A stretch of DNA of 64,000 nt from Pseudomonadota bacterium (GTDB lineage Bacteria; Pseudomonadota; Gammaproteobacteria; Burkholderiales; Thiobacillaceae). The notes below the pieces were generated by a model, which worked only from the letters and a program-made list of their open reading frames with translations, made no database searches and was not told the origin of the DNA. The first letter of the stretch is position 1; every line of letters begins with the position of its first letter. Below are positions 1-13,854 of the stretch, piece after piece. The DNA lies in the NCBI GenBank assembly GCA_030691265.1, contig JAUYET010000075.1:880-64879 (forward strand), given 5' to 3'. The translations under genes and the position numbers were made by a program.

Positions 1-2
1 TC

Positions 3-260
3 TGCGTTGATGCTTTGACTGCATCCGTCGCTGGTATTGATCTTGCAGCCGGCACCCTGCTTCCCACTTCTACTGCTTTTGGCACTGTCGCCACGGCTAA
101 TACAACAGGTTATACCTTGGCTTTTAGCGCTACCTCGGTGACCTTTAACTTGGGTGGCACGCTGGTGCAGCAGGTGCCGGTAACGACGGCAGCGACTCCT
201 CGCACCTACGAAGCAGGTACTTACTCGGGCAAAATCGGATTGGAAGTCACTTTCCTGTGA
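3..260 (+). CDS. C-terminal part of a small secreted fimbrial-type subunit (DUF4402/SCPU-like); 5' end lies outside the window
   Basis: The frame is open from the window edge. It ends GTYSGKIGLEVTFL, a G-x-Y-S-G...V-x-(Y/F) terminal strand motif that recurs in the next gene. Its stop overlaps the next start (GTGA at 257-260). Confidence 0.5.
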   Translation, partial: CVDALTASVAGIDLAAGTLLPTSTAFGTVATANTTGYTLAFSATSVTFNLGGTLVQQVPVTTAATPRTYEAGTYSGKIGLEVTFL

Positions 261-1291
261 TTTGGCCTCTCCGCCCCCTTGTGGGGCAGTTTTGCAAGCT
301 AGTCAACCGGCAGTCATATGATTGCCGGTATTTTTTTGTGCTTGCCAGTATTTCGTTTTGGTTAGGGCTGGCATCCTCGTCCGCTTTTGCCGCACCGCAA
401 ATCGTCATGTTGCAACGGCTGGATTTTGGCGTGCTGGCAATCCGCGCCAATGCGGTGGCCTCGGCGCTGACACTCTCACCGCTAGGCGCCACCTCCTATG
501 GCAGTGCTTTTGTTTCCATCGCGGCAGCGGTGCCAGGGCGTTACCGGCTGACCGGTTACCCCGCCTTCACCGACATTAGCGTGAGCATGTCGGCCAGCCC
601 GATCAACCTGGCCAGCGGCGTTCTCGGCGAAACCCTGACCGTGTCAACTGCCGTCACTAACCCACTGGTGCTGCATACCGATGTCAACGGTCAGGTCGAC
701 TTTAATCTCGGGGCCACGCTGACCACCAGCGGCAGCAGCGTGCTTTACCCGGATGGCGTTTATGTCGGTCATCCAGGGCTGACCCTGAACTTCAATGTTG
801 CGGGGGTTCCGCAGTTTACAAATCACCAAATCGATGTTGACGTTGTGCTGCGCACCAGCCTGGTTCTGACCGAAATGGAACAGCTCTCTTTTGGCAAGCT
901 TGCTGTGTTTTCTTCGGCCACCGACCAGGCTACTCTGAAGCTGGAGCCGAACAGACAGGTCACCATCGTTAATGCCGGCAGCGCCAAAATCGTGCGCTTT
1001 GGCAACGAAACACCCGGCGTCTTCAAGGTGACCACGGGTGCGGCCTATGCACCGGTCACCATCACGCTTCCCGCCACCACCATCTATCTCACGCATCAGT
1101 CGCTGTCGCCCGATGTCGCGCGGCTGCTGGCGACCGATTTCGTCTCCCTGCCCACCTCCGCCAACGCCAAGCTTGACGCCAATGGCACGATGGAATTCCG
1201 CCTCGGCGCCACACTGCGCACCGAGCAGACGGCAAAACGCTATCAAGACGGCTTGTATTCAGGTTCATATCTGCTGGATGTCGAGTATTAA
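257..1291 (+). CDS. Secreted protein with two DUF4402/SCPU-like modules (putative tip or adhesin subunit)
   Basis: Signal-peptide-like N-terminus (FWLGLASSSAFA/AP). Two modules end in FNLGATL...GVYVGHPGLTLNF and FRLGATL...GLYSGSYLLDVEY. The start is uncertain (GTG at 257). Confidence 0.5.
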   Translation: MIWPLRPLVGQFCKLVNRQSYDCRYFFVLASISFWLGLASSSAFAAPQIVMLQRLDFGVLAIRANAVASALTLSPLGATSYGSAFVSIAAAVPGRYRLTGYPAFTDISVSMSASPINLASGVLGETLTVSTAVTNPLVLHTDVNGQVDFNLGATLTTSGSSVLYPDGVYVGHPGLTLNFNVAGVPQFTNHQIDVDVVLRTSLVLTEMEQLSFGKLAVFSSATDQATLKLEPNRQVTIVNAGSAKIVRFGNETPGVFKVTTGAAYAPVTITLPATTIYLTHQSLSPDVARLLATDFVSLPTSANAKLDANGTMEFRLGATLRTEQTAKRYQDGLYSGSYLLDVEY

Positions 1292-1423
1292 ACTACCCGC
1301 CTGAATCGGCATGGTCGATGGCTCCGGGGCAAAAAATACGCTGCAATGTTTGAGGCAATTCACCTGCTCGCCACATGCTTGCACACAGTTGTTCACTGTT
1401 GATAACCAGTCTGGAGAGTTTCG

Positions 1424-2320
1424 ATGTACTTGAAGCGCATATTTTCTGCATTATGGCGTGGCCTGAAGTTTGCCGCCCAGGACACTTCCGTCACGCTCGC
1501 CGTACTCGCGATCAGTATTTTGGCGCTACCATCACATGCAGATATCCTCATCAGTCCGCAACGCGCAATCTTGACCGATGACGTTCGGCAGGCAGTGATC
1601 AGCTTGCATAACCCGGGCACGGATCCACGCGCTTACCGTTTAAGCTGGGTTGAGCGCCGAGTCACTGAAGACGGGCAAGTGCTTAGCCTCAAGGATGGCG
1701 AGAATCCACGCTCGATCACCTCGATGGTGCGTTTCTCGCCGCGCCGCGTGATCATCCAGCCCGGGCAAACCCAGACCGTGCGGCTGGAGTACCGGCCGCC
1801 AGCCGATCTGAAACCTGGCGAATATCGCTCCCACCTGCGCATCGGCATGGAGCCCATCGCCGATAAAAACGGTAATAGCGGTGGCACCGAGGTCATGCGC
1901 GGTGAGAAGGAGGGCATTTCTTTCCGCCTGGACGCCTTGATGTCTTTTTCCGTGCCGATATTTGTGCGTCATGGCGCGGGTGGTGCGGAAGTGAAAATTT
2001 CCGCAGTGGAACCCGTGATAAACAAGCAGGACGGCCCCGGCGTGCCCGCCTTGAAGGTGACACTTTCGCGCGGTGGCGAATTTGGCGCTTATGGCCGGCT
2101 GATGGTTTATCGCCAATTAAATGCCAGCGCACCGGTTGAATTGATCGGCGAAGCCGGGTCAGTCGCCTTGTATGCAGAGGTTAGCGGCCATACCCGCATG
2201 ATCAACCTGAGACCGGATGCCAGTTTGACGCCCGGAAGCTGGGTCAGGGTGACCTATGAAGGCGTGGGCGAAGAGCGAGGCCGGGTTTTTGCTGAACAGA
2301 CTTTCCAGCTTGGCAAGTGA
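1424..2320 (+). CDS. PapD-like periplasmic pilus chaperone
   Basis: Signal peptide, then ILISPQRAILTDD..AVISLHNPG..YRLSW and IIQPGQTQTVRLEY, the typical two-Ig-domain fimbrial chaperone pattern. It lies next to the subunit genes. Confidence 0.65.
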   Translation: MYLKRIFSALWRGLKFAAQDTSVTLAVLAISILALPSHADILISPQRAILTDDVRQAVISLHNPGTDPRAYRLSWVERRVTEDGQVLSLKDGENPRSITSMVRFSPRRVIIQPGQTQTVRLEYRPPADLKPGEYRSHLRIGMEPIADKNGNSGGTEVMRGEKEGISFRLDALMSFSVPIFVRHGAGGAEVKISAVEPVINKQDGPGVPALKVTLSRGGEFGAYGRLMVYRQLNASAPVELIGEAGSVALYAEVSGHTRMINLRPDASLTPGSWVRVTYEGVGEERGRVFAEQTFQLGK

Positions 2321-2361
2321 TCAACTACTTGATAACGGTAAATTTGTTCTAACCGAGATTT

Positions 2362-2468
2362 CGTCATTCTTGCGCAGGTGCGAATCCAGTTCGTTTGCCA
2401 AGCTTGGGGTTGAACGGCAATCAGACGAACGCACTGGATTCTGGCTTACCCACTGCCGGAATGACGGA
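2362..2468. repeat. Imperfect palindromic REP-like element (cgtcattc..gcgaatccag / ctggattc..gaatgacg arms)
   Basis: Inverted arms of about 35 bp lie in the convergent gap between the chaperone gene and the glycine-zipper gene. Confidence 0.45.
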
Positions 2469-2560
2469 CTAAAACGGTTTCACGTGATTACTTAACACCT
2501 TGCGGAAATGACGGTAGCTCAAAGTGTTACGGCGAGAACAAATTAGTCGTGCCTACTTGA

Positions 2561-3148
2561 TCAACTGCCTTGTGAGTAAAAACACAGGCCTCGTAAATGC
2601 GGAACGAGGATCGTTTTCCCACCGCACGCCGCTGCGATCTGCTCGCTGGAAAATCGGGGTAATACTGGTACGGGCATCGAAACCTGGCTCGCTTTAACGG
2701 TGCTGGGTGTGTCGAAGGTGATGCCCTGAGCGTTGGCGAAGGACAGTGTCGGTGTGGCCTGTCCGTTTTGCGGCACGATGTCGCGTTTGACGTAAAGCAG
2801 GCTGGCTTTCTCTGCCCGGGCCTTATCCTCGTTGAACATCGAATTCTTGCCGACAAAGAAGCCGACCACGCTTCCTACGATAGGCCCGGCCGGGTGAGCG
2901 AACATCGCCCCGCCGAGGATGCTGCCCGCCAGAGAGCCGGAGCGCCGGGGGTCGGAAAGATAATCGCGGATATATCCCGAGGTCTTGTCTCCTAACCCCG
3001 CGCCCGAAGCCGCTTTGGTGGCGTTTTTGGCCGACGCAGTGTCAACAGCTAATGAGTCACTGCCATAGGATGCACCACCATAAGACGACGCTAACACCAG
3101 GGTTGATAACAGGGCGCTGTCGCGTAGATTTTTCAGAATGACTTTCAT
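2561..3148 (-). CDS. Secreted glycine-zipper protein
   Basis: N-terminal signal MKVILKNLRDSALLSTLVLASS. Gly-zipper stretch GSLAGSILGGAMFAHPAGPIVGSVVGFFVG. GGAG RBS upstream of the ATG at 3148. It follows the usher-like gene with a 19-nt gap. Confidence 0.4.
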   Translation of the reverse strand: MKVILKNLRDSALLSTLVLASSYGGASYGSDSLAVDTASAKNATKAASGAGLGDKTSGYIRDYLSDPRRSGSLAGSILGGAMFAHPAGPIVGSVVGFFVGKNSMFNEDKARAEKASLLYVKRDIVPQNGQATPTLSFANAQGITFDTPSTVKASQVSMPVPVLPRFSSEQIAAACGGKTILVPHLRGLCFYSQGS

Positions 3149-3167
3149 CGGTTTCACTCCTTCGCTC

Positions 3168-6100
3168 TTATGGAGCAATTGTGATGCACTCAATGCCTTG
3201 AGTCTTCAGAGCGCTACACATTGTATCGGCACCGGATTTGCCGGGTTTCGCTACAACGCGGTGAAATAGGCCATGTCGGCCAAGATCGACGGTGACGATA
3301 TCGATCTGCGCATCTATAAGCAGAGGCATGGATAACAACTTTTGCCGATACGCCCGGGCGCCTTCAATATCCGCGAATGCGGCGATTTGAACCAGCCGGC
3401 CGTCGGATGGTTTATCCACTGCGGCTGGCGCGGGCGAAGGATCTGCTTGAGTTTTGGCTACGGTTAAGGCTGGCGCAGGTGGCAAGGTCACCACCGGTTG
3501 CGCGATAACGGATGTTTCGGCCAGCGTTGCCGGTGTTTCGGGAATGACTATTTCCACATTGGAATATTCGCTGCGTTCTCTCGCCAGAATCACCTTGGGT
3601 TGATTGGCGCTGGCGCGTAGTTGCCCGGCCAGGTCAAGGCTGTAGCTGTCATAGGGGACATCTTCGAACACGAACAAGCCGTCCTGGCTGGATATTTTGA
3701 ACGCGACGACGGCGCCAGCGCTGTTGCGGAGTTCGACCATTGCGCCAGCCAGTGGAGCACGCCGGTTAAACTGCATTTTGTAGACATGCCCGTCGATGAC
3801 TCCCGTTGGAATAACTGGGAAATCAATGACCTTGATTGCGGTCGGCCGCGGACGAACCGAGTTGCCGGCATGGGCCGAAATCATCTGCGTACTAGGCAAC
3901 GTTTCGGTTGCCAAAACCACGTCGGTGGGGCGAACCGAATCCATGTTGGTCAGGTAGGCCACGCCCTTATCGTCGGTCTTTGCGCTACGGTAGGCCTGAA
4001 TGGCTCGAATCGAGACGTTGGGCAACGGTTCGTCTTCTGCGCTGAAAGTCTTGCTGCCGTCATTGTCCAGAAAGACGCGCGCCGCTACGGTGCCGCTGGT
4101 GGCTAGTGAACTGCCGCTGACCATGATACCGGCGCGATCCGGGCGTGGTGCCAGGGAGAAGGCGGCGTAGATGAAGCCACTGTATTCGCCGTTCGAGTCG
4201 TAGTTGACGCGCGGGCTTAAGGTGACTTGCGGAAACTGCCAGTTCAAACCCGAGGTGTAGCGGGTGACGTTGGAAAGCGGGGTGTAGATCAGGCCAAAGT
4301 TGACGCTCATGTCATTGGCAATAGTCAGGTTGCTGTCCAGGAAATACTGGCGCGCCTCGGCATTGGGCTGCAAGGTATACGACAAGCCGCCGCGCAACGT
4401 CAGAGGTTGGGCGCTGGTGCTGAAAAACAGGCTGCCATCCAGAACATCGGGCAGGCGAACATCGCTTGAGTCGCGGCCGAACTGGAAATAGTTAAGCGTG
4501 TTGCCGTAGGTGACACGGCCCGTTCGCGCAGTGAAGCCAGCCGAGGCTTGATTGGAACTCCGGGCCGGTTCCTGATTGTGAAACAGTGAGAACACGGTCG
4601 AGGTTTTGCCAATTGGGCCGCTCAGCGTGAGGCCGGTGCGGCTGCGCAGTTGCAGTTCATATTTATCTTGCACAAGCGGATCATCAACAAGCACGGTCTG
4701 GGCGTATTGCGTATGACTGAAACGCGCGTCAAACCCCCATAATTTTTTCTGCGCGGGGAGTGCAATGGAGCCATCCCAACGCGTGCCGGTGAGCGGGGCA
4801 TACGTCGCGGTTGCGCCAAAGGTGATGTCGCGCCAGCCAGCGCTTGCGCCCAGGCTGGTGTAGTTGAGCCGCCGACCATCAACCACCAGGTTGTTCCATG
4901 CACCACGCAATGACAATTTCGGCAACACGCGGATTTCCATGCTGCCGGCAAGTCGCAATGATCCGCGATCGCTCATGCCTGGATAGGACGTGTCTTGTCC
5001 GTCGTAGATTTGCTCGCCTTTTTGTGATGCGGACAGTTGATAACGCACGCTGCCAGGCAGGTCAGGGGTTAAACCGCTATATCGAGTAATGGTTTCCGTA
5101 CGGCGTTCGCCTGCTGGGCCGTAGAAGGCCAGTTCGAATTTATTCTCGCCAGCAAAGGGTTCGATATTGGTGAAATTGTAGCGTCCATTCGCGCCTATGG
5201 TCTGGAACCCAACGCGCATGCCGTTCTGGAACAGTTCTACATCCCAGCCTTCGAGCGCGTCGCCGCGGAGGTTGAAAATGTCGCTGCCGATCAGGTCGTC
5301 ACGGCCAACGGTCGAGCCGCCACCTTGAATCAAAACGCCGCGCTCGACGCCGCTGTAGCTCACGCCGGGCACGATGGCCGGGACGATGTCGCCGACTTCG
5401 ACGTAGCGCAAACCCAAGGGCATGCCGAGATTGTCGCGCGATAAGCTGAATCGGGCTTGCGACAGCGCGTCCTGGTCGCTTCCACTCAGGTAAATATGCG
5501 AATCCATGTAGGTGAGATCGCCGCTCACCAGCGCCGAATAGTTGAGGCCGGTGGTCGTTTTACCGGTGCTCTCGGGACGCCGAATCGAGTAACCCAGGCC
5601 GATATCAGCGGCATGCGGACCCAGTAGTTTGTAGGGGCTATCAATCAGTGGCAATGTGGCTGGGCCGACGCTGTAGCCCTGCTGAGCGCCACGGCGGCGA
5701 GCCTGACGTTCCTGTAATGGCAGACGCTCACGCGGCATCACTTCGATCTTCAAGGCCGATATTTTGAGACTCAAATCGACCGGAAACCAACGCGATAGCG
5801 CTTCAACGGTGACGAAAATGGCATCTTTGTGGGTGAATGCGTCATTAAGCAGGAGCTTTTTGCGCTTGCCCTCAATCTCGACAAATTTTTCATTCAGGTT
5901 GAGCACGAATGTGCGCTCTGGACGAATGAATGAGCCGTTGGCCGTGCCAGCCACCGGGTCGACAATAATGGGAAATTCGAATGCAGCACCGGCTTCGGCC
6001 AGAGAAACCACAGCCGTGTCGCCTAGTGCATAAGCCGTGACCGATGAGGCCAGAATCTGACGCTCCAGGACAAAGTCGAGCAAAAGCAGATTGTCTTCTT

Positions 6101-6218
6101 CGAGTAGCGCTGCTTGTGCCGGTGAATTGAACACCAGCCCGGTTAGCAAAGCTGACGAAACAATAAGCGTGCTTAGAAGGCGGTTCAGGCCGTCGAAATA
6201 TCGTCCACCGCTGTCCAT
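3168..6218 (-). CDS. Usher-like outer-membrane protein with C-terminal CarboxypepD_reg-like domains and a terminal SPOR domain
   Basis: Signal peptide (start taken at MDSGGRYF..SPAQA). The usher-type middle region DVELFQNGMRVGFQTIGANGRYNFTNIEPFAGENKFELAFYGPAGERRTETITRY resembles the usher plug region. IDGHVY...VELRNSAGAVVAFKISSQDGLFVFEDVPYDSYSL is CarboxypepD_reg-like. The last ~75 aa, LVQIAAFADIEGARAYRQKL...GLFHRVVAKPGKSGADTMCSALKTQGIEC, are SPOR-like. Confidence 0.6.
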   Translation of the reverse strand: MDSGGRYFDGLNRLLSTLIVSSALLTGLVFNSPAQAALLEEDNLLLLDFVLERQILASSVTAYALGDTAVVSLAEAGAAFEFPIIVDPVAGTANGSFIRPERTFVLNLNEKFVEIEGKRKKLLLNDAFTHKDAIFVTVEALSRWFPVDLSLKISALKIEVMPRERLPLQERQARRRGAQQGYSVGPATLPLIDSPYKLLGPHAADIGLGYSIRRPESTGKTTTGLNYSALVSGDLTYMDSHIYLSGSDQDALSQARFSLSRDNLGMPLGLRYVEVGDIVPAIVPGVSYSGVERGVLIQGGGSTVGRDDLIGSDIFNLRGDALEGWDVELFQNGMRVGFQTIGANGRYNFTNIEPFAGENKFELAFYGPAGERRTETITRYSGLTPDLPGSVRYQLSASQKGEQIYDGQDTSYPGMSDRGSLRLAGSMEIRVLPKLSLRGAWNNLVVDGRRLNYTSLGASAGWRDITFGATATYAPLTGTRWDGSIALPAQKKLWGFDARFSHTQYAQTVLVDDPLVQDKYELQLRSRTGLTLSGPIGKTSTVFSLFHNQEPARSSNQASAGFTARTGRVTYGNTLNYFQFGRDSSDVRLPDVLDGSLFFSTSAQPLTLRGGLSYTLQPNAEARQYFLDSNLTIANDMSVNFGLIYTPLSNVTRYTSGLNWQFPQVTLSPRVNYDSNGEYSGFIYAAFSLAPRPDRAGIMVSGSSLATSGTVAARVFLDNDGSKTFSAEDEPLPNVSIRAIQAYRSAKTDDKGVAYLTNMDSVRPTDVVLATETLPSTQMISAHAGNSVRPRPTAIKVIDFPVIPTGVIDGHVYKMQFNRRAPLAGAMVELRNSAGAVVAFKISSQDGLFVFEDVPYDSYSLDLAGQLRASANQPKVILARERSEYSNVEIVIPETPATLAETSVIAQPVVTLPPAPALTVAKTQADPSPAPAAVDKPSDGRLVQIAAFADIEGARAYRQKLLSMPLLIDAQIDIVTVDLGRHGLFHRVVAKPGKSGADTMCSALKTQGIECITIAP

Positions 6219-6590
6219 CGTCGCGGATGCTGAAGCACGGAAAAACTGCCTGGTTAGTATTTCAATACTCCACTGCCTGCCAGCGGTTGAACAACAGCCT
6301 CGATAACTATCTTCCACTGGGCGATGATGAATAACACAATAAAAACAAGAAATTCAATGGTTTTGGCGAGTTTCCTCGAGTCTTTCTGTTACTGTCAATC
6401 GCGAATTTTTCAATGTAGAGTGCGGATTGAAATGTGGGTACTCCTGCCTATTCCGCCAACGTGCGTATCTCGCAATCGGCGTGGCTTATGGAGGCAAGGG
6501 CCAATGGCTTTTCTTGGTTCAAGGAGGTCAACGACATCGTCACTCCGACCTTGACGGAAGTGTTGAAACTCGATGAATGCCTAATAGGAA

Positions 6591-6733
6591 GGCTCTGTTC
6601 GCTCTAAGCGTTGAAAACCCGATGGTACCGCATTGAGTCTGGCTATCCGTATGATTTGGCGGGATTTATCCCTGGCGACGTTTTGGCCAAGTCATTGAAT
6701 CAACAGCGACCAACGGAAGACGCGAACAGAGCC
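6591..6733. mobile_element. 143-bp MITE-like element with 12-bp perfect terminal inverted repeats and an 8-bp target-site duplication
   Basis: GGCTCTGTTCGC at 6591-6602 and its exact reverse complement at 6722-6733. Both are flanked externally by the direct repeat AATAGGAA (6583-6590 and 6734-6741). Confidence 0.55.
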
Positions 6734-6952
6734 AATAGGAAACGCGGCTTGACCCAGCAAACAGCGCCATCGTCGAAATTTTGACAGGCATGTTGAAAGA
6801 CTGGCAGCGTGCCCGGTTAGTCTGTCATCAATTATTCAAATATCCTTGGTTTAATGCGGCCTCGCGGATCATTCGACGCTCACCAGGACTTGGCACGATT
6901 CCCGCTAAACATCTCCCGCAAGTTGATTCAACCATGTCATTGGGAGCTAAAA

Positions 6953-7204
6953 ATGTTGCTACATGAGATAGACAAAATGGATGTCAGTTTGATTCCAGGC
7001 GACGATGGTTTTGATCGCATCGCCATCAAGTTGTTGAGTGATTTGGGCGCTTCGCTGACGCTGACCCCCAGTCAGGCGAGGATTCTTGCCACCGAACTGA
7101 TCGCTGCCGTGAATCGCGCAGAAGTGAAGAGCAGTCTCAAAAACAGCCCAAACTTATGGCGCCGCCAGGGGGAAGCCCGTCCCCGCCTGGCAACGGCGAG
7201 CTGA
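6953..7204 (+). CDS. Hypothetical small protein (83 aa)
   Basis: ATG is preceded by GGGAG (tgggagctaaaaATG). No recognisable domain. The longer ORF from 6854 is less likely. Confidence 0.3.
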   Translation: MLLHEIDKMDVSLIPGDDGFDRIAIKLLSDLGASLTLTPSQARILATELIAAVNRAEVKSSLKNSPNLWRRQGEARPRLATAS

Positions 7205-7289: not shown

Positions 7290-7315
7290 GGCCGACCTAA
7301 GTCGGCCATTTTTTT
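7290..7315 (+). terminator. Rho-independent terminator-like hairpin
   Basis: ggccgac-ctaa-gtcggcc stem-loop followed by a T7 run. Confidence 0.5.
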
Positions 7316-7347: not shown

Positions 7348-7722
7348 ATGGCGGTCCTGGAACTCGACGAACAGAACTTCGAAGAAGTCATTCTCAACAA
7401 CGATTTTGTCGTGATCGACTTCTGGGCGCCCTGGTGCGGTCCCTGTCAGGGCTTCGCGCCGGTGTACGAAGCGGCTTCGGAAAAGCATGAAGGCATCGTC
7501 TTCGCCAAGGTGAATACTGAAGAGCACCAGGCGCTGGCTGGCCACTTCCAGATTCGCTCCATTCCCACCCTGGTGATCTTCCGCGAGAAAGTGATCATTT
7601 ACGCCCAGCCAGGCGCAATGCCAGCAAGTGGTTTCGACGATCTGATCGCGCATGCCAAGGAAGTCGATATGGCGCAGGTTCATGCCGAGATCGAGGCCGA
7701 ATCCGGCAAGGAAAACGGTTAA
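7348..7722 (+). CDS. Thioredoxin
   Basis: FWAPWCGPC active site and IRSIPTLVIF motif. Confidence 0.9.
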   Translation: MAVLELDEQNFEEVILNNDFVVIDFWAPWCGPCQGFAPVYEAASEKHEGIVFAKVNTEEHQALAGHFQIRSIPTLVIFREKVIIYAQPGAMPASGFDDLIAHAKEVDMAQVHAEIEAESGKENG

Positions 7723-7723
7723 T

Positions 7724-8791
7724 TCAGCCTTTACGCGCCAGTAAATGGCGCGCTGCCTGCGCCGCCCCATCGGCACGGATTGCGGCCTTGCGGGGCTGGC
7801 GCCAGAGTTCAGCCATTGCCGTTTCGACCCGGCTGGAAAACAGGACGGGCTCCTCGATGGCAGCCGCATTGCCGTGCTTCTCCAGCCAGGTGGCGAGGTA
7901 GGGTGTTTCCGGCCAATCCGGCCGACCCATATAAAGCACCGGCACGGCATGCACAGCCGCTTCGACGAAACCGCCGTAACCGACTTTGGTGAGCAGAACG
8001 TCGCTGGATGCCAGCAGATCAAGGAAGGGCAGGTCGAGCGCGCTGAATGGAATCACATCCGCCCGCTCGGGCCCCCAGTCATCCGGCACCAGCCAGATGA
8101 TGTCAGCCAGTTCCGGCAAGCGTCCTTTGCTCTGGTAAGCAATGCCGCCAAACCCCAGTAATGCCAGTTTGCAGGTTGCCGGCAGCGCCAATTTTTCAAT
8201 CAGTTCCTGCCGCCGATTGCGCCCGCGTGCGGCGATCGGCGCAATGCCCCGGCGGCGCGGCAGTTGCGGCATGGGCATGGAGGGTTCGGGTTGCAGAAAA
8301 ACGCCGGCCGCAGCGTAGGCGGCATTCATTTCCCGGAAAATCTCGGCGGCCCCCGGGCGTTCTGCCAGATAGGCTTGCGCGATGTCGGCCCAGTTCAGCG
8401 AACATAGCGCCACGCTTCCGATGCCGGCTTGCGCGGCGGCCGCGAGGGGCAGATAGGCCACGTCGACAAATACCTGATCGAAAGCCTGTGCGCGCAGCCA
8501 AGCGGCTTCACGCTGCACCCGCGCCGGCCAATCGGCATGAAACGCCTGATAGGCGGCATGGCTGGCGGTCAGATCGACGCGCATCGCATCGTGCATGATC
8601 AGACCGACATCGGCGGCTTCATGACGATGTTCAAACGGCCCTTCGATGCGTGCATGCAGCGCGGCGGGGTTGAGTCCGGACCAGATCGTCAGTTCCAGGC
8701 CGGGTTGCAGCACGCGCAGCGCATTCAGCACCGGCGCCGCTTGCGCCAGATGGCCGAGGCCATGCTGGCTGATCGCCGCCAATAACTTCAT
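7724..8791 (-). CDS. GT-B fold glycosyltransferase-like protein of unknown function
   Basis: N-terminal SQHGLGHLAQ glycine-rich loop and a MurG/UGT-like overall pattern. It overlaps the hda stop by 4 nt. The assignment is weak. Confidence 0.3.
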   Translation of the reverse strand: MKLLAAISQHGLGHLAQAAPVLNALRVLQPGLELTIWSGLNPAALHARIEGPFEHRHEAADVGLIMHDAMRVDLTASHAAYQAFHADWPARVQREAAWLRAQAFDQVFVDVAYLPLAAAAQAGIGSVALCSLNWADIAQAYLAERPGAAEIFREMNAAYAAAGVFLQPEPSMPMPQLPRRRGIAPIAARGRNRRQELIEKLALPATCKLALLGFGGIAYQSKGRLPELADIIWLVPDDWGPERADVIPFSALDLPFLDLLASSDVLLTKVGYGGFVEAAVHAVPVLYMGRPDWPETPYLATWLEKHGNAAAIEEPVLFSSRVETAMAELWRQPRKAAIRADGAAQAARHLLARKG

Positions 8792-9459
8792 GGCGCCAGG
8801 CTTTGTTGCAGGATTTCCTTCAGCATCGGCAGGGAAACCGGCCGTTTGCGGCTCAGGGAGTGGGTGTCGAGCAGATCTACCAGCGTCAGCAGGTGGGGCA
8901 GATCGCGCCGGCAGTGGGTCAGTAAGTAACGCAACACCTCATCCGGCAGCCGCATACCGTGCGACTCGGCGCGCACGGTCAGTGCGGCGCGTTTGTCGGC
9001 GTCGCTCAGGGGGTGCAGGCGGAATACCAGGCCCTGGGCCAGACGGGTGGCGAGGTCCGGCCGCACATTCAATTCGATCAACTGCGCCGGCGGCAACGGG
9101 CCGGTGGCCAGCACCCGGCCGGCGCCTTCGCGCGCGGCGTTGATCAGGCTGAACAGCCGGATCTGGTCTTCGGCATCCAGTCGATCCACGTCGTCCACCA
9201 CCACGAGCGCCTGCGGCGGTTCCGGCAGCGGGAAAACGGGCGCCGCGCCAGTGGCGTGACACCAGGCCTGAAAAAGATGGCTTTTGCCGGTGCCGGCCTC
9301 GCCCCACAGATACAAAACGGGTTCTTGAATCAGCCCGGCGGCGTGTTCACGTACCGCGGCGAGCGCCTCGGCGTTGGGGCCGGGCAGGAAGTTATCGAAG
9401 CCGGGCAGGGTGTCCGGGCGAATATCGAGTATCAGTTGGTTGGGGGGCGGAAGACGCAT
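8788..9459 (-). CDS. hda: DnaA regulatory inactivator Hda
   Basis: N-terminal clamp-binding-like QLILDI, Walker [12 protein letters not shown], and a DnaA-family AAA+ pattern. Confidence 0.8.
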
Positions 9460-9556
9460 GGCGCGCGAGTTTACCAGCGCCGTGTGCTGTCACATCGGCA
9501 CTACTGCGGACGCGGCCTTGCTTGACAGGCGTGGCTCCCGGCGACTAAATCGCTCC

Positions 9557-10636
9557 ATGACTTCCGATACACCCACACCCGTGATTCCCGCCGCCTGCCC
9601 CGTAACCGATGTGCCGCCCGTGATCGAAGAAGTGCTGGCGCCAGGCGAGCAGGAAGCGCTGACCGCCTGCATCAAGACGCTGCTGGTCGAGCAGGATGCG
9701 GTTCTGGTGGCGCACTACTACACCTCGGCCGTATTGCAGAAACTGGCCGAGGAAACCGGCGGTTGCGTTTCGGATTCGCTGGAAATGGCGCGTTTCGGCC
9801 ATGCCGCCAAGTCGAAAACGCTGGTCGTGGCCGGCGTGCGCTTCATGGGCGAGACCGCCAAAATTCTGAATCCGGAGAAACGCGTATTGATGCCGGATCT
9901 GCATGCCGAGTGTTCCCTCGACCTGTCCTGTCCGGCGGACGCCTTCAGCCAGTTTTGCGATGCGCATCCGGATCGCGTCGTGGTGGTCTACGCCAACACT
10001 TCCGCCGCTGTGAAAGCGCGCGCCGACTGGATGGTGACTTCCAGCATCGCGGTGAAAGTCGCGGCGCATCTGCATGCGCAAGGCAAGAAGCTGATCTGGG
10101 CGCCGGATCGCTATCTCGGCGATTACGTGCAGAAAACCACCGGCGCCGACATGCTGCTCTGGCAAGGCTCGTGCGTGGTGCATGAAAAATTCAAGGCGGC
10201 AGGCATCCGCGCCTTGAAAGCCCAATACCAGGACGTGGCCGTGCTGGTGCATCCGGAATCGCCGGCCGCCGTCATCGCGCTGGCCGATGTGGTCGGCTCG
10301 ACTACGCAACTGATCCGCGCGGCGGCGGAATTGCCGCAGCAGACCCTGATCGTCGCCACCGACAACGGCATCTTTCACAAGATGCGACTCGCCGCGCCTG
10401 GCAAGACGCTGCTGGAAGCGCCGACCGGCGGCGCTGGCGCGACTTGCGTGTCTTGCGCGCACTGTCCGTGGATGGCGATGAACGGGCTGAAAGGTTTGCT
10501 GCACGTGCTTGAAACCGGCGCCAATGAAATCCACATCGACCCGGCGATCGGCCGCCGTGCCGTGGTCTCGATCAACCGGATGCTCGAATTTGCCGGCCAG
10601 ACCGGCATCAGCATCGCCGGCATGAGCGGCGATTGA
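9557..10636 (+). CDS. nadA: Quinolinate synthase NadA
   Basis: [16 protein letters not shown], conserved Cys residues and HPES motifs. Start placed at MTSDTP; the longer ORF from 9374 overlaps hda. Confidence 0.9.
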
Positions 10637-10666
10637 GCGGTACCTCTCATCTCACCGGAGAACAAC

Positions 10667-11086
10667 ATGCGCTTCATACAGGAATTCAAGGCTTTCGCGA
10701 TGCGCGGCAATGTTGTCGATCTGGCGGTCGGCGTCGTGATCGGCGCGGCCTTCGGCAAGATCGTCGATTCTCTGGTCAAGGACATCATCATGCCGGTGGT
10801 CGGCGCGATGCTGGGCGGCGTCGATTTCAAGCAGTTCTATTTCAATCTCGGTGGCACGTCATACGAGAGCCTGGAACTGGCCGAAAAAGCCGGCGCGCCG
10901 CTGATCAAATACGGCGCCTTCATCAACAGCATGGTGGACTTCACCCTCATCGCCTTCGCCATCTTCGTCGCCGTGAAAGCCATCAACAAACTCAAGCGCA
11001 CGGAAGATGCCGCGCCGGTGGCCCCCGCGCCAACGCCGGAAGACATCGTCTTGCTGCGCGAAATTCGGGATGCATTGAAAAAATGA
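10667..11086 (+). CDS. mscL: Large-conductance mechanosensitive channel
   Basis: [33 protein letters not shown] is near-canonical MscL. Confidence 0.95.
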
Positions 11087-13116: not shown

Positions 13117-13854
13117 TCAGACCTTGTACCCCACGTGTAACGCCACCACGCCGACGGTCATGTTGAAGTAGTCGACGCGCTGAAAGCCGACCGATTCCAT
13201 CATGCTTTTCAGCGTTTCCTGATCCGGATGCATGCGGATGGATTCGGCCAGGTAGCGATAGCTTTCGGCGTCCTTGGTGACCAGTTCGCCCATGCGCGGC
13301 AGCATCTTGAACGAGTAGAGGTCATACAGCGGCGCCAGCGGTTTCCATATCTTGGAAAACTCCAGCACCATCAGCTTGCCGCCCGGTTTCAGCACGCGGC
13401 GCATTTCGGCCAGCGCGACTTCCTTGTGCGTCATGTTGCGCAGGCCGAAGGCGACGGTGACCAGGTCGAAGTAATCGCTTGGAAACGGCAGTTTTTCCGC
13501 GTCGCACTGGGCCACCGGCAACATCAAGCCTTTGTCCATCATGCGGTCGCGGCCGACGCCCAGCATCGAGCCGTTGATGTCGGTCAGCCAGACTTCGCCG
13601 CTCGGGCCGGCTTCTTCAGCCAGTAAACGCGCGATGTCGCCGGTGCCGCCGGCGATATCCAACACCTTGTGGCCGGGGCGGATGCGCGCGTGCAAGGCCA
13701 GAAAACGCTTCCAGACCCGGTGCAGGCCCATCGACATGAGGTCGTTCATCGCGTCGTAGCGATTGGCGACGGAATGGAATACCTCGGCGACCTTGCGGGC
13801 TTTTTCTTCCTCGGCGACGGTCTTGAAGCCGAAATGGGTTTGTTTGTCAGACAT
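13117..13854 (-). CDS. ubiE: Ubiquinone/menaquinone biosynthesis C-methyltransferase UbiE
   Basis: [39 protein letters not shown] and the [13 protein letters not shown] motif. Confidence 0.9.

Follow-up and report, generated by a model that had tools for sequence, protein, structure and literature searches.

Few bacterial surface fibres are as well understood as chaperone/usher pili, and almost everything known about them comes from enterobacterial pathogens and from families visible to the standard usher model. The locus described here raises the question whether a cluster that ordinary annotation does not recognise can build such a fibre, and what a SPOR domain would do at the end of its secretion pore. 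The window, meaning the whole stretch of DNA that was analysed, comprises 64,000 nt of a Pseudomonadota bacterium (Thiobacillaceae; assembly GCA_030691265.1, contig JAUYET010000075.1, positions 880 to 64,879 of the forward strand). In the six-frame list of open reading frames (ORFs), positions 1-6218 of the window contain five genes, which encode a truncated first subunit (subA), a second subunit (subB), a PapD-like chaperone, an usher and a small Gly-zipper protein. The subA, subB and chaperone genes lie on the + strand, and the usher and Gly-zipper genes on the - strand converge on them. All of them are intact except subA, of which the 3' end lies within the window.

The cluster probably encodes a complete and very divergent chaperone/usher fibre-assembly system, in which the SPOR tail of the usher would bind denuded glycans, tether the assembly platform to the sacculus and perhaps place ushers at division sites. 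The gene content, the folds, the homology and the recurrence of the SPOR fusion were established in the analysis; donor-strand exchange, peptidoglycan binding and an anchoring or localising role are inferred. Such a system follows the familiar chaperone/usher logic; what is unfamiliar is the clade, with its pilin family and its wall-binding tail. In the open-access papers and bioRxiv preprints searched, no SPOR-bearing usher was described and the co-mentions of SPOR and usher were incidental, which agrees with a preliminary description, made from the sequence, whose reader knew of no characterised example. The same literature held no paper on DUF4402 (PF14352, IPR025514), none that combined spore coat protein U, usher and archaic, and nothing that links ushers with the sacculus or with a position in the cell.

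The large protein is an usher homologue by profile and fold

The usher gene is located at 3168..6218 on the - strand. Its ORF has a maximal extent of 3168..6317; the sensible start is the ATG at 6218 (MDSGG...), which gives a protein of 1016 aa with a signal peptide and is also the start of the database gene call (P0001). Pfam showed no Usher (PF00577, at E <= 1), PapC_N or PapC_C match on this protein, and only one of 38 relatives matched Usher (E 0.001). In NCBIfam, neither the usher nor the subunits are covered by a model. A single-sequence phmmer search of the usher against PDB sequences found nothing relevant, and the usher-family profile matched only SdrD, NOMO and DedD domains among PDB sequences, with no usher.

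An alignment of 38 homologues was used as input both for an AlphaFold2 model (mean predicted local distance difference test, pLDDT, 83.3) and for hhalign. In the model, the DSSP element order starts with a mixed N-terminal domain (NTD, residues 44-162), six long strands (203-300), a six-strand sandwich (315-381) and 18 long strands (391-691). Next come a pair of beta-sandwiches (698-790 and 795-892), a disordered segment and a beta-alpha-beta-beta-alpha-beta domain (942-1014). This order, in which a sandwich stands between the first six strands and the other 18, is that of ushers, and the 24-strand barrel and plug, which the preliminary description had raised as a question for structure prediction, are thus both present in the model. 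The predicted domains are a signal peptide (1-36), the NTD (44-162), the barrel (203-691), C-terminal domains CTD1 (698-790) and CTD2 (795-892), a linker and SPOR. The plug is placed by the DSSP order and by hhalign between barrel strands 6 and 7 (residues ~315-381, nt 5076..5276, - strand).

When the model was compared with the PDB by Foldseek, the 18 best matches were all FimD/PapC chains (E 1.5e-28 to 1e-13). About 918 columns were aligned to full-length FimD complexes and about 530 columns to the PapC/FimD translocation domains 2vqi and 3ohn (TM-score 0.47-0.49 on the target), and the identity to FimD/PapC was 12-15%. Other barrels, such as TonB-dependent receptors, LptD and porins, appeared at ~1e-5 only, more than 8 orders of magnitude behind the ushers. 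Consistently, hhalign of the family against the combined profile of five ushers from E. coli K-12 (FimD, SfmD, HtrE, YehB and ElfC) gave a probability of 95.6% (E 1.1e-8) over 489 columns, collinear through the plug, barrel, CTD1 and CTD2. Residues 316-390 fell on residues 300-378 of the FimD precursor, which is the plug, and this alignment covers the segment DVELFQNGMRVGF...YGPAGERR that had been quoted earlier as the usher-like middle part. The NTD (44-162) draws its support from the full-length Foldseek alignment and lies outside the profile-level alignment. By profile-profile comparison and modelled fold, the 1016-aa protein is an usher homologue outside the curated Pfam family, and the earlier view of it as usher-like is upheld.

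Two other identities were considered for this protein and rejected. A TonB-dependent-receptor-like or LptD-like barrel reaches ~1e-5 in Foldseek versus 1e-28 for the ushers. For an SdrD or carboxypeptidase-type adhesin, the similarity is confined to the plug and CTD2 sandwiches.

The C-terminus had been described as CarboxypepD_reg-like sandwiches in place of the usual pair of usher CTDs. The first part of this claim has a basis, since Pfam CarboxypepD_reg matches residues 820-882 (E 4e-10). However, hhalign placed residues ~744-790 on the CTD1 region and residues ~800-864 on the CTD2 region of FimD (FimD 728-848), and residues ~744-864 are therefore collinear with the two domains that had been thought absent. 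Together with the ~918 columns aligned by Foldseek, this indicates that the sandwiches (residues 698-790 and 795-892, nt 3543..4127, - strand) are the usher CTDs and not replacements for them, and that the SPOR domain is appended to a complete usher. A sub-threshold Pfam SdrD_B match was also found at residues 323-374. In PapC, the plug resembles CTD2 in structure, which fits the observation that the same Pfam sandwich families match both positions here.

A predicted SPOR domain follows the second C-terminal domain

The linker after CTD2 is rich in Pro and Ala (residues 893-941, ~49 residues; nt 3399..3542, - strand) and is predicted to be disordered, with pLDDT below 50 at residues 898-929. 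Among 45 family members, the median linker from CTD2 to the first SPOR is 48 aa. The SPOR domain itself occupies residues 941-1016 (nt 3171..3398, - strand). Pfam SPOR (PF05036) matches residues 941-1013 (nt 3180-3398) with 22.8 bits against a cutoff of 21, and with 24.4 bits when the C-terminal 420 aa are rescored alone. The AlphaFold2 model shows the SPOR fold of beta-alpha-beta-beta-alpha-beta with pLDDT of ~85-93, in which the strands are at 942-948, 972-978, 984-990 and 1012-1014 and the helices at 951-962 and 997-1006. A profile built from 53 SPOR tails of family members found FtsN 1UTA (E 4e-5), CwlC 1X60 (5e-5) and RlpA 6I05 as its best PDB matches. In this profile alignment, VQIAAF and FHRVV of the window protein align with VQCGSF and WNRVV of FtsN, and the Gln, aromatic and Arg residues are kept at FtsN positions Q251, W283 and R285. 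Mutagenesis of FtsN and DamX ties these conserved residues to septal localisation. Judged by the Pfam score, the family profile and the predicted fold, the tail behind the Pro/Ala linker is a genuine SPOR domain, as had been proposed.

The CTDs of FimD and PapC are periplasmic, which would put the SPOR tail of this usher in the peptidoglycan compartment. SPOR domains of FtsN, DamX, DedD and RlpA bind denuded glycans specifically, and denuded glycans are enriched at septa. The best-supported role suggested by the sequence is that the tail would bind peptide-free glycans and so attach the assembly platform to the sacculus.

The chaperone is PapD-like and highly divergent

The chaperone gene (1424..2320, + strand) encodes 298 aa with a signal peptide. 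Pfam PapD had no match on the window chaperone itself, an exact-sequence look-up of it returned no record and single-sequence phmmer against PDB sequences found nothing relevant. The NCBIfam fimbrial chaperone model matched it with 25 bits (E 1e-5). Because this is the only such match, and neither Pfam Usher nor PapD is found, the usher and the chaperone are both invisible to ordinary annotation.

The relatives of the chaperone were more informative. Pfam PapD_N was found in 28 of 40 family members at E <= 0.01, and the best PDB matches of the family profile were FimC, CupB2, PapD and YadV, all weak. When the 40 homologues were compared with five E. coli chaperones by hhalign, a probability of 95.9% (E 6e-9) was obtained over 94 columns of the N-terminal domain, which bears out the PapD-like chaperone of the preliminary description. 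A P45-x-R47 motif right after the signal peptide is invariant in the 40 homologues; R47 is about mature residue 7, and it aligns with R44 of the FimC precursor, which is mature Arg8. A second invariant motif, G-E-Y-R-S(-H) at 132-137 including R135, lies where the G1 strand is expected, and R135 may correspond to the second basic residue of the chaperone cleft (Lys112). The C-terminal half of the chaperone has no PapD_C match and is outside the hhalign alignment.

The subunits have a DUF4402 pilin fold

The subA gene is represented by its 3' end at 1..260 (ORF 3..260, stop codon 258-260, + strand), and was assigned by a family DUF4402 hidden Markov model (HMM) and by the gene order of locus L002. 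L002 comes from a metagenome-assembled genome of Hydrogenophilales and is the closest complete relative, with the identical five genes in the same convergent arrangement. Since the gene set is identical and the L002 subA has 263 aa, the window lacks about 180 codons of subA and the cluster is otherwise whole. Pfam showed no match on the subA fragment. Its C-terminal motif FNLGGTL...GTYSGKIGLEVTFL fits the C-terminal half of the family-expanded DUF4402 HMM weakly (11 bits), and the L002 orthologue spans this HMM end to end, with inserts, at 21 bits.

The subB protein matches Pfam DUF4402 (PF14352) in two stretches with E 3e-19 and 70.3 bits, against a cutoff of 25.2. Its AlphaFold2 model (pLDDT 89.5) consists of two tandem beta-sandwich modules, so that the two-module structure proposed earlier is found both in the sequence and in the model. 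The best PDB match of this model is the CfaB-CfaB tandem pilin fusion (E 6.5e-6); after it come CssA/B, CooA, CsuA/B (weak, E 0.02), AggA and FimA. These best matches are chaperone/usher pilins, which indicates that DUF4402 is a chaperone/usher pilin fold, and the DUF4402 subunits of a chaperone/usher cluster are thereby confirmed. The subunits had also been called SCPU-type (spore coat protein U); Pfam shows DUF4402 only, with no SCPU match on either subunit at E <= 1. In 65 of 81 loci, DUF4402-like ORFs were found by an iterated HMM, mostly two per locus, and among these loci two-module subunits were seen in near relatives of the window only.

The N-termini of the subunits across loci fall into two types. 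In the first, an alternating stretch of 12-20 residues lies between the signal peptide and a conserved 'dLnFG' strand, for example ...TATANVVVPLAITNTIDLNWG, and the N-terminus of the L002 subA, FPVTATVQNAVTLTNSTPMSFG, has such a stretch. In the second, the mature protein starts almost at the 'dLnFG' strand, as in subB of the window, APQIVMLQRLDFG. Two such types would be expected for a polymerising subunit that carries a donor strand and for a tip subunit without one, and the two-module subB, proposed earlier as a possible tip adhesin, may be such a tip subunit.

A terminator-like hairpin with a 10-bp stem and a T-run is located directly 3' of the subA stop codon (306..339, + strand; -23.8 kcal/mol, z = -5.1). 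At the same position, strong hairpins with a T-run but with different sequences are present in L002 (~13490-13610, - strand) and L003 (~5640-5800, - strand). The hairpin probably acts as an attenuator that separates the major subunit gene from the genes downstream. Fimbrial operons classically set subunit stoichiometry by a partial terminator behind the gene of the major subunit, and the hairpin therefore supports subA as the abundant pilin; subA is probably the major polymerising pilin.

The same hairpin bears on the start of subB, whose maximal ORF begins at 257 and would encode 344 aa. At the N-terminus of this long ORF an apparent conservation of 'RQxxxCRxFF' was seen. It was rejected as a protein sequence, being more likely the attenuator hairpin read in frame. 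This moves the likely start to the GTG at 338, downstream of the hairpin, and subB (338..1291, + strand) probably encodes 317 aa, in agreement with the 317-aa database gene call.

The usher family is large and about half of its sampled members carry SPOR

In a pattern scan of one genome per species, at least 569 loci encode relatives of the usher. They belong to Alpha-, Beta- and Gammaproteobacteria, Desulfobacterota, Bdellovibrionota, Acidobacteriota, Nitrospinota, Zixibacteria and Verrucomicrobiota. A HMMER scan of 1.84 billion cluster representatives (50% identity) found 3937 proteins at E <= 1e-30, a few of which may be driven by the repeated sandwich domains, and the best 150 were all below 1e-200. 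Of 80 loci, 68 have a chaperone homologue no more than 8 kb from the usher, and the genes very often follow each other on one strand as subunit(s)-chaperone-usher. Dozens of unrelated genomes share this gene set, and the cluster is thus not a chance assembly. Most hosts are bacteria with an environmental, free-living or predatory way of life, and the cultured ones include Parazoarcus communis, Pseudothauera lacus, Pseudoalteromonas spp., Kiloniella majae and Psychromonas hadalis. Members of the family bear the public names 'hypothetical protein', 'SPOR domain-containing protein', 'carboxypeptidase-like regulatory domain-containing protein' and 'cell division septation protein DedD'; one fragment was named FimD/PapC by JGI.

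SPOR was found by Pfam in 32 of 76 usher C-termini (42%), by the family-iterated HMM in 45 of 82 proteins and in 44 of the 75 complete proteins from other loci (59%), and in 75 of the 147 representatives listed, fractions that are biased upward because the samples were ranked by similarity to a SPOR-containing query. One, two or three tandem copies are present. Beyond the HMM count, at least one more C-terminus, that of the L039 usher, is SPOR-like by eye. In the Pfam census of the 76 C-termini, no known peptidoglycan-binding family besides SPOR was found. In a neighbour-joining tree of the core region, SPOR ushers make up one large and almost uninterrupted part, which spans Alpha-, Beta- and Gammaproteobacteria, Desulfobacterota and Bdellovibrionota, and the SPOR-less ushers (~880-930 aa) form the remainder. 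This contiguity across phyla suggests that the SPOR fusion is old and has been maintained, and argues for long-term selection.

Other variations of the usher were also seen. The usher of L030 (Nitrospinaceae, ~10600-11078) ends in a ShlB-type POTRA domain (Pfam POTRA_2, E 3.9e-16) with no SPOR, which recalls the 'P-usher' CupB3 of Pseudomonas. In many family members, among them P0226, P0256, P0258, P0264 and P0314, the usher NTD is preceded by an extension of 300-550 residues, and some of them reach 1300-1500 aa. L064 (Micavibrio) carries two chaperone-usher pairs of the family in tandem on one contig (761-4856 and 7703-11860). The HMM finds SPOR in the second usher only, and the tail of the first is SPOR-like by eye.

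Comparison with known systems

The system shares with FimD and PapC of E. coli type 1 pili and P pili the NTD, the 24-strand barrel, the plug between strands 6 and 7, CTD1 and CTD2, together with a PapD-like chaperone and Ig-fold subunits. It differs from them in its 12-15% identity, outside Pfam Usher, PapC_N and PapC_C, in subunits that belong to DUF4402 rather than Fimbrial (PF00419), in the Pro/Ala linker and SPOR after CTD2, and in the additional Gly-zipper gene. The archaic (sigma) Csu system of Acinetobacter and the alternative (alpha) CFA/I system are likewise non-classical, widespread in environmental bacteria and encoded by small clusters with a two-domain tip subunit, and the best structural matches of subB include CfaB, CooA and CsuA/B. 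In contrast, the Csu subunits carry SCPU, which Pfam does not find here, and archaic and alternative ushers are found by the Pfam Usher model that matched one of the 38 relatives of the window usher. To our knowledge, a SPOR tail has not been described for archaic or alternative ushers.

With FtsN, DamX, DedD and RlpA the tail shares the same beta-alpha-beta-beta-alpha-beta domain, with the Gln in strand 1 and the aromatic-x-Arg-Val in strand 3 kept, and RlpA is likewise attached to the outer membrane and reaches peptidoglycan from that side. Those proteins act in division or glycan cleavage, whereas here the domain is the tail of a predicted fibre-secretion pore, with putative roles in binding and localisation. 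An outer-membrane barrel for the export of a surface structure that has an accessory periplasmic domain is also seen in the secretin PilQ with AMIN, in intimin and YeeJ with LysM and in the 'P-usher' CupB3 with POTRA. These belong to other barrel families with other accessory domains, and the analogy is functional only.

A model for a wall-tethered usher and its alternatives

In the proposed model, subA and subB would be exported by Sec as subunits with the DUF4402 pilin fold and captured in the periplasm by the PapD-like chaperone, which would deliver them to the FimD/PapC-like usher in the outer membrane. The usher would polymerise the subunits by donor-strand exchange and extrude the fibre, and subB, with two tandem pilin modules and without the alternating stretch, would be the probable tip or first-incorporated subunit. 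Past CTD2 and the linker, the SPOR domain would hang in the periplasm and bind peptide-free ('denuded') glycan strands, so that the platform would be tethered to the sacculus. Through the septal enrichment of denuded glycans, new ushers might be deposited at division sites, which are the future poles. The AMIN domains of PilQ pre-install type IV pilus machines at division sites, and the division-site mechanism is proposed by analogy with them. The full form of this last step, in which SPOR recruits newly inserted ushers to septal denuded glycans and fibres are installed at new poles once per cell cycle, is put forward tentatively and is rather doubtful.

Several points weigh against the model as a whole. 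The family is known from sequence and predicted structure, and no fibre has been seen for any member. The C-terminal domain of the chaperone and the NTD of the usher lie outside the profile-level alignments and are supported by the whole-chain Foldseek match and by gene context. The window SPOR domain is barely above the Pfam cutoff (22.8-24.4 versus 21 bits), as a single sequence in a phmmer search against PDB sequences it matched no solved SPOR structure, and it has Ala at the position of FtsN Ser254. SPOR domains are not always septal. About 40-50% of the family ushers are without SPOR, which means that it is not essential for assembly, and the frequency of SPOR is affected by the sampling bias described above.

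The nearest alternative concerns the purpose of the tail. SPOR may be a mechanical peptidoglycan anchor only, which steadies the pore against the pull of the fibre and plays no role in usher position. Ushers with two or three tandem SPOR domains resemble wall avidity rather than a positional signal, and the presence of tandem copies in many members favours avidity or anchoring. The linker lengths fit the span of the gap between the outer membrane and peptidoglycan, and OmpA-like and LysM modules serve purely as anchors in many outer-membrane proteins, for example LysM in intimin and YeeJ. However, OmpA_C or LysM would do equally well as a generic anchor, yet SPOR is the only peptidoglycan-binding family that Pfam finds in the 76 C-termini. 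The specificity of SPOR for denuded glycans, established for FtsN, DamX, DedD and RlpA, and the septal enrichment of these glycans speak for a positional role as well. An anchor without positional function is a serious possibility, which we would still stop short of calling probable.

Two further readings question the fibre and the pore. The DUF4402 proteins might form a surface layer, a capsule-like polymer or a coat instead of a pilus, comparable to Caf1 or the spore coat protein U of Myxococcus, with SPOR tying export to wall remodelling. Such a product would suit an uncharacterised family on which no papers were found, the large inserts of subA relative to the domain model and the mostly environmental, free-living or predatory hosts. 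It is improbable in view of the structural matches of subB, the best of which are the rod or fibre pilins CfaB, CooA, CsuA/B and FimA, and of the pairing of one subunit that has the N-terminal stretch with one that lacks it, which is the usual tip-plus-shaft logic. The 1016-aa protein could also be imagined as another large barrel, TonB-dependent-receptor-like or LptD-like, that stands beside Ig-fold proteins and is not an usher, as there is no Pfam Usher match, no usher among the sequence-level PDB matches and only 12-15% identity to FimD/PapC. This is hardly credible against a Foldseek lead of the ushers over other barrels of more than 8 orders of magnitude, the hhalign collinearity through plug, barrel and CTDs, a plug after strand 6 and a PapD-like chaperone linked in 68 of 80 loci. 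The preferred reading is still a chaperone/usher system with a wall-binding tail.

Under this preferred reading, the cluster belongs to a very large hidden branch of ushers that is currently labelled 'hypothetical', 'SPOR domain-containing' or 'carboxypeptidase regulatory-like'. Recognising this branch would give DUF4402 a likely pilin function and would allow thousands of genes to be re-annotated. About half of the sampled ushers have one to three SPOR domains, which suggests the idea that the cell wall anchors or positions assembly pores that work independently of energy. If septal recruitment were true, it would be the first cell-cycle-coupled, peptidoglycan-guided positioning for a chaperone/usher machine, in an unrecognised major clade defined by DUF4402 pilins, with ~3900 clusters at 50% identity in at least 7 phyla.

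The Gly-zipper gene and the surroundings of the cluster

The Gly-zipper gene (2561..3148, - strand) lies 20 nt downstream of the usher and encodes a small secreted accessory protein of 195 aa. The ORF announced in the preliminary description is present at this place, and its glycine-zipper character is indicated by a weak Pfam Gly-zipper_Omp match (E 0.02 in the window; E 9e-4 in the orthologue from L002, which does not reach the Pfam cutoff either). In 13 of 80 loci such a gene adjoins the usher, all among the nearest relatives L001-L016 and all with SPOR-bearing ushers. The protein has a conserved C-terminal Cys pair (C...LCFYSQGS). An outer-membrane association like that of SlyB/Pcp is a guess.

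The convergent intergenic region (2270..2600) between the chaperone and Gly-zipper genes contains a long imperfect palindrome with five nested inverted repeats. It covers ~320 nt, made up of the 240-nt spacer and both gene ends, and has a minimum free energy of -109.7 kcal/mol (z = -3.3). Either a bidirectional terminator or a small palindromic element may be present here. Rfam gave zero matches across the whole window, and a promoter scan found fewer sites than in shuffled sequences.

The G+C content of the cluster (window 1-6300) is 55-58%, and that of the housekeeping genes to the right (7500-10000) is 62-66%. Thioredoxin (7348-7722) and Hda (8788-9459) are among these housekeeping genes. 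A spacer of ~1 kb between them and the cluster (6000-7000) has a lower G+C content of 49-53%. The contrast would fit a cluster that was acquired horizontally. Upstream of the usher, the spacer also contains a small ORF (6953-7204, + strand) of ~83 aa, counted from Met34 of a 116-aa ORF, with no Pfam match, which could encode a small regulator or not be a gene. A clean terminator-like hairpin is located at 7290-7307, ~85 nt downstream of this small ORF.

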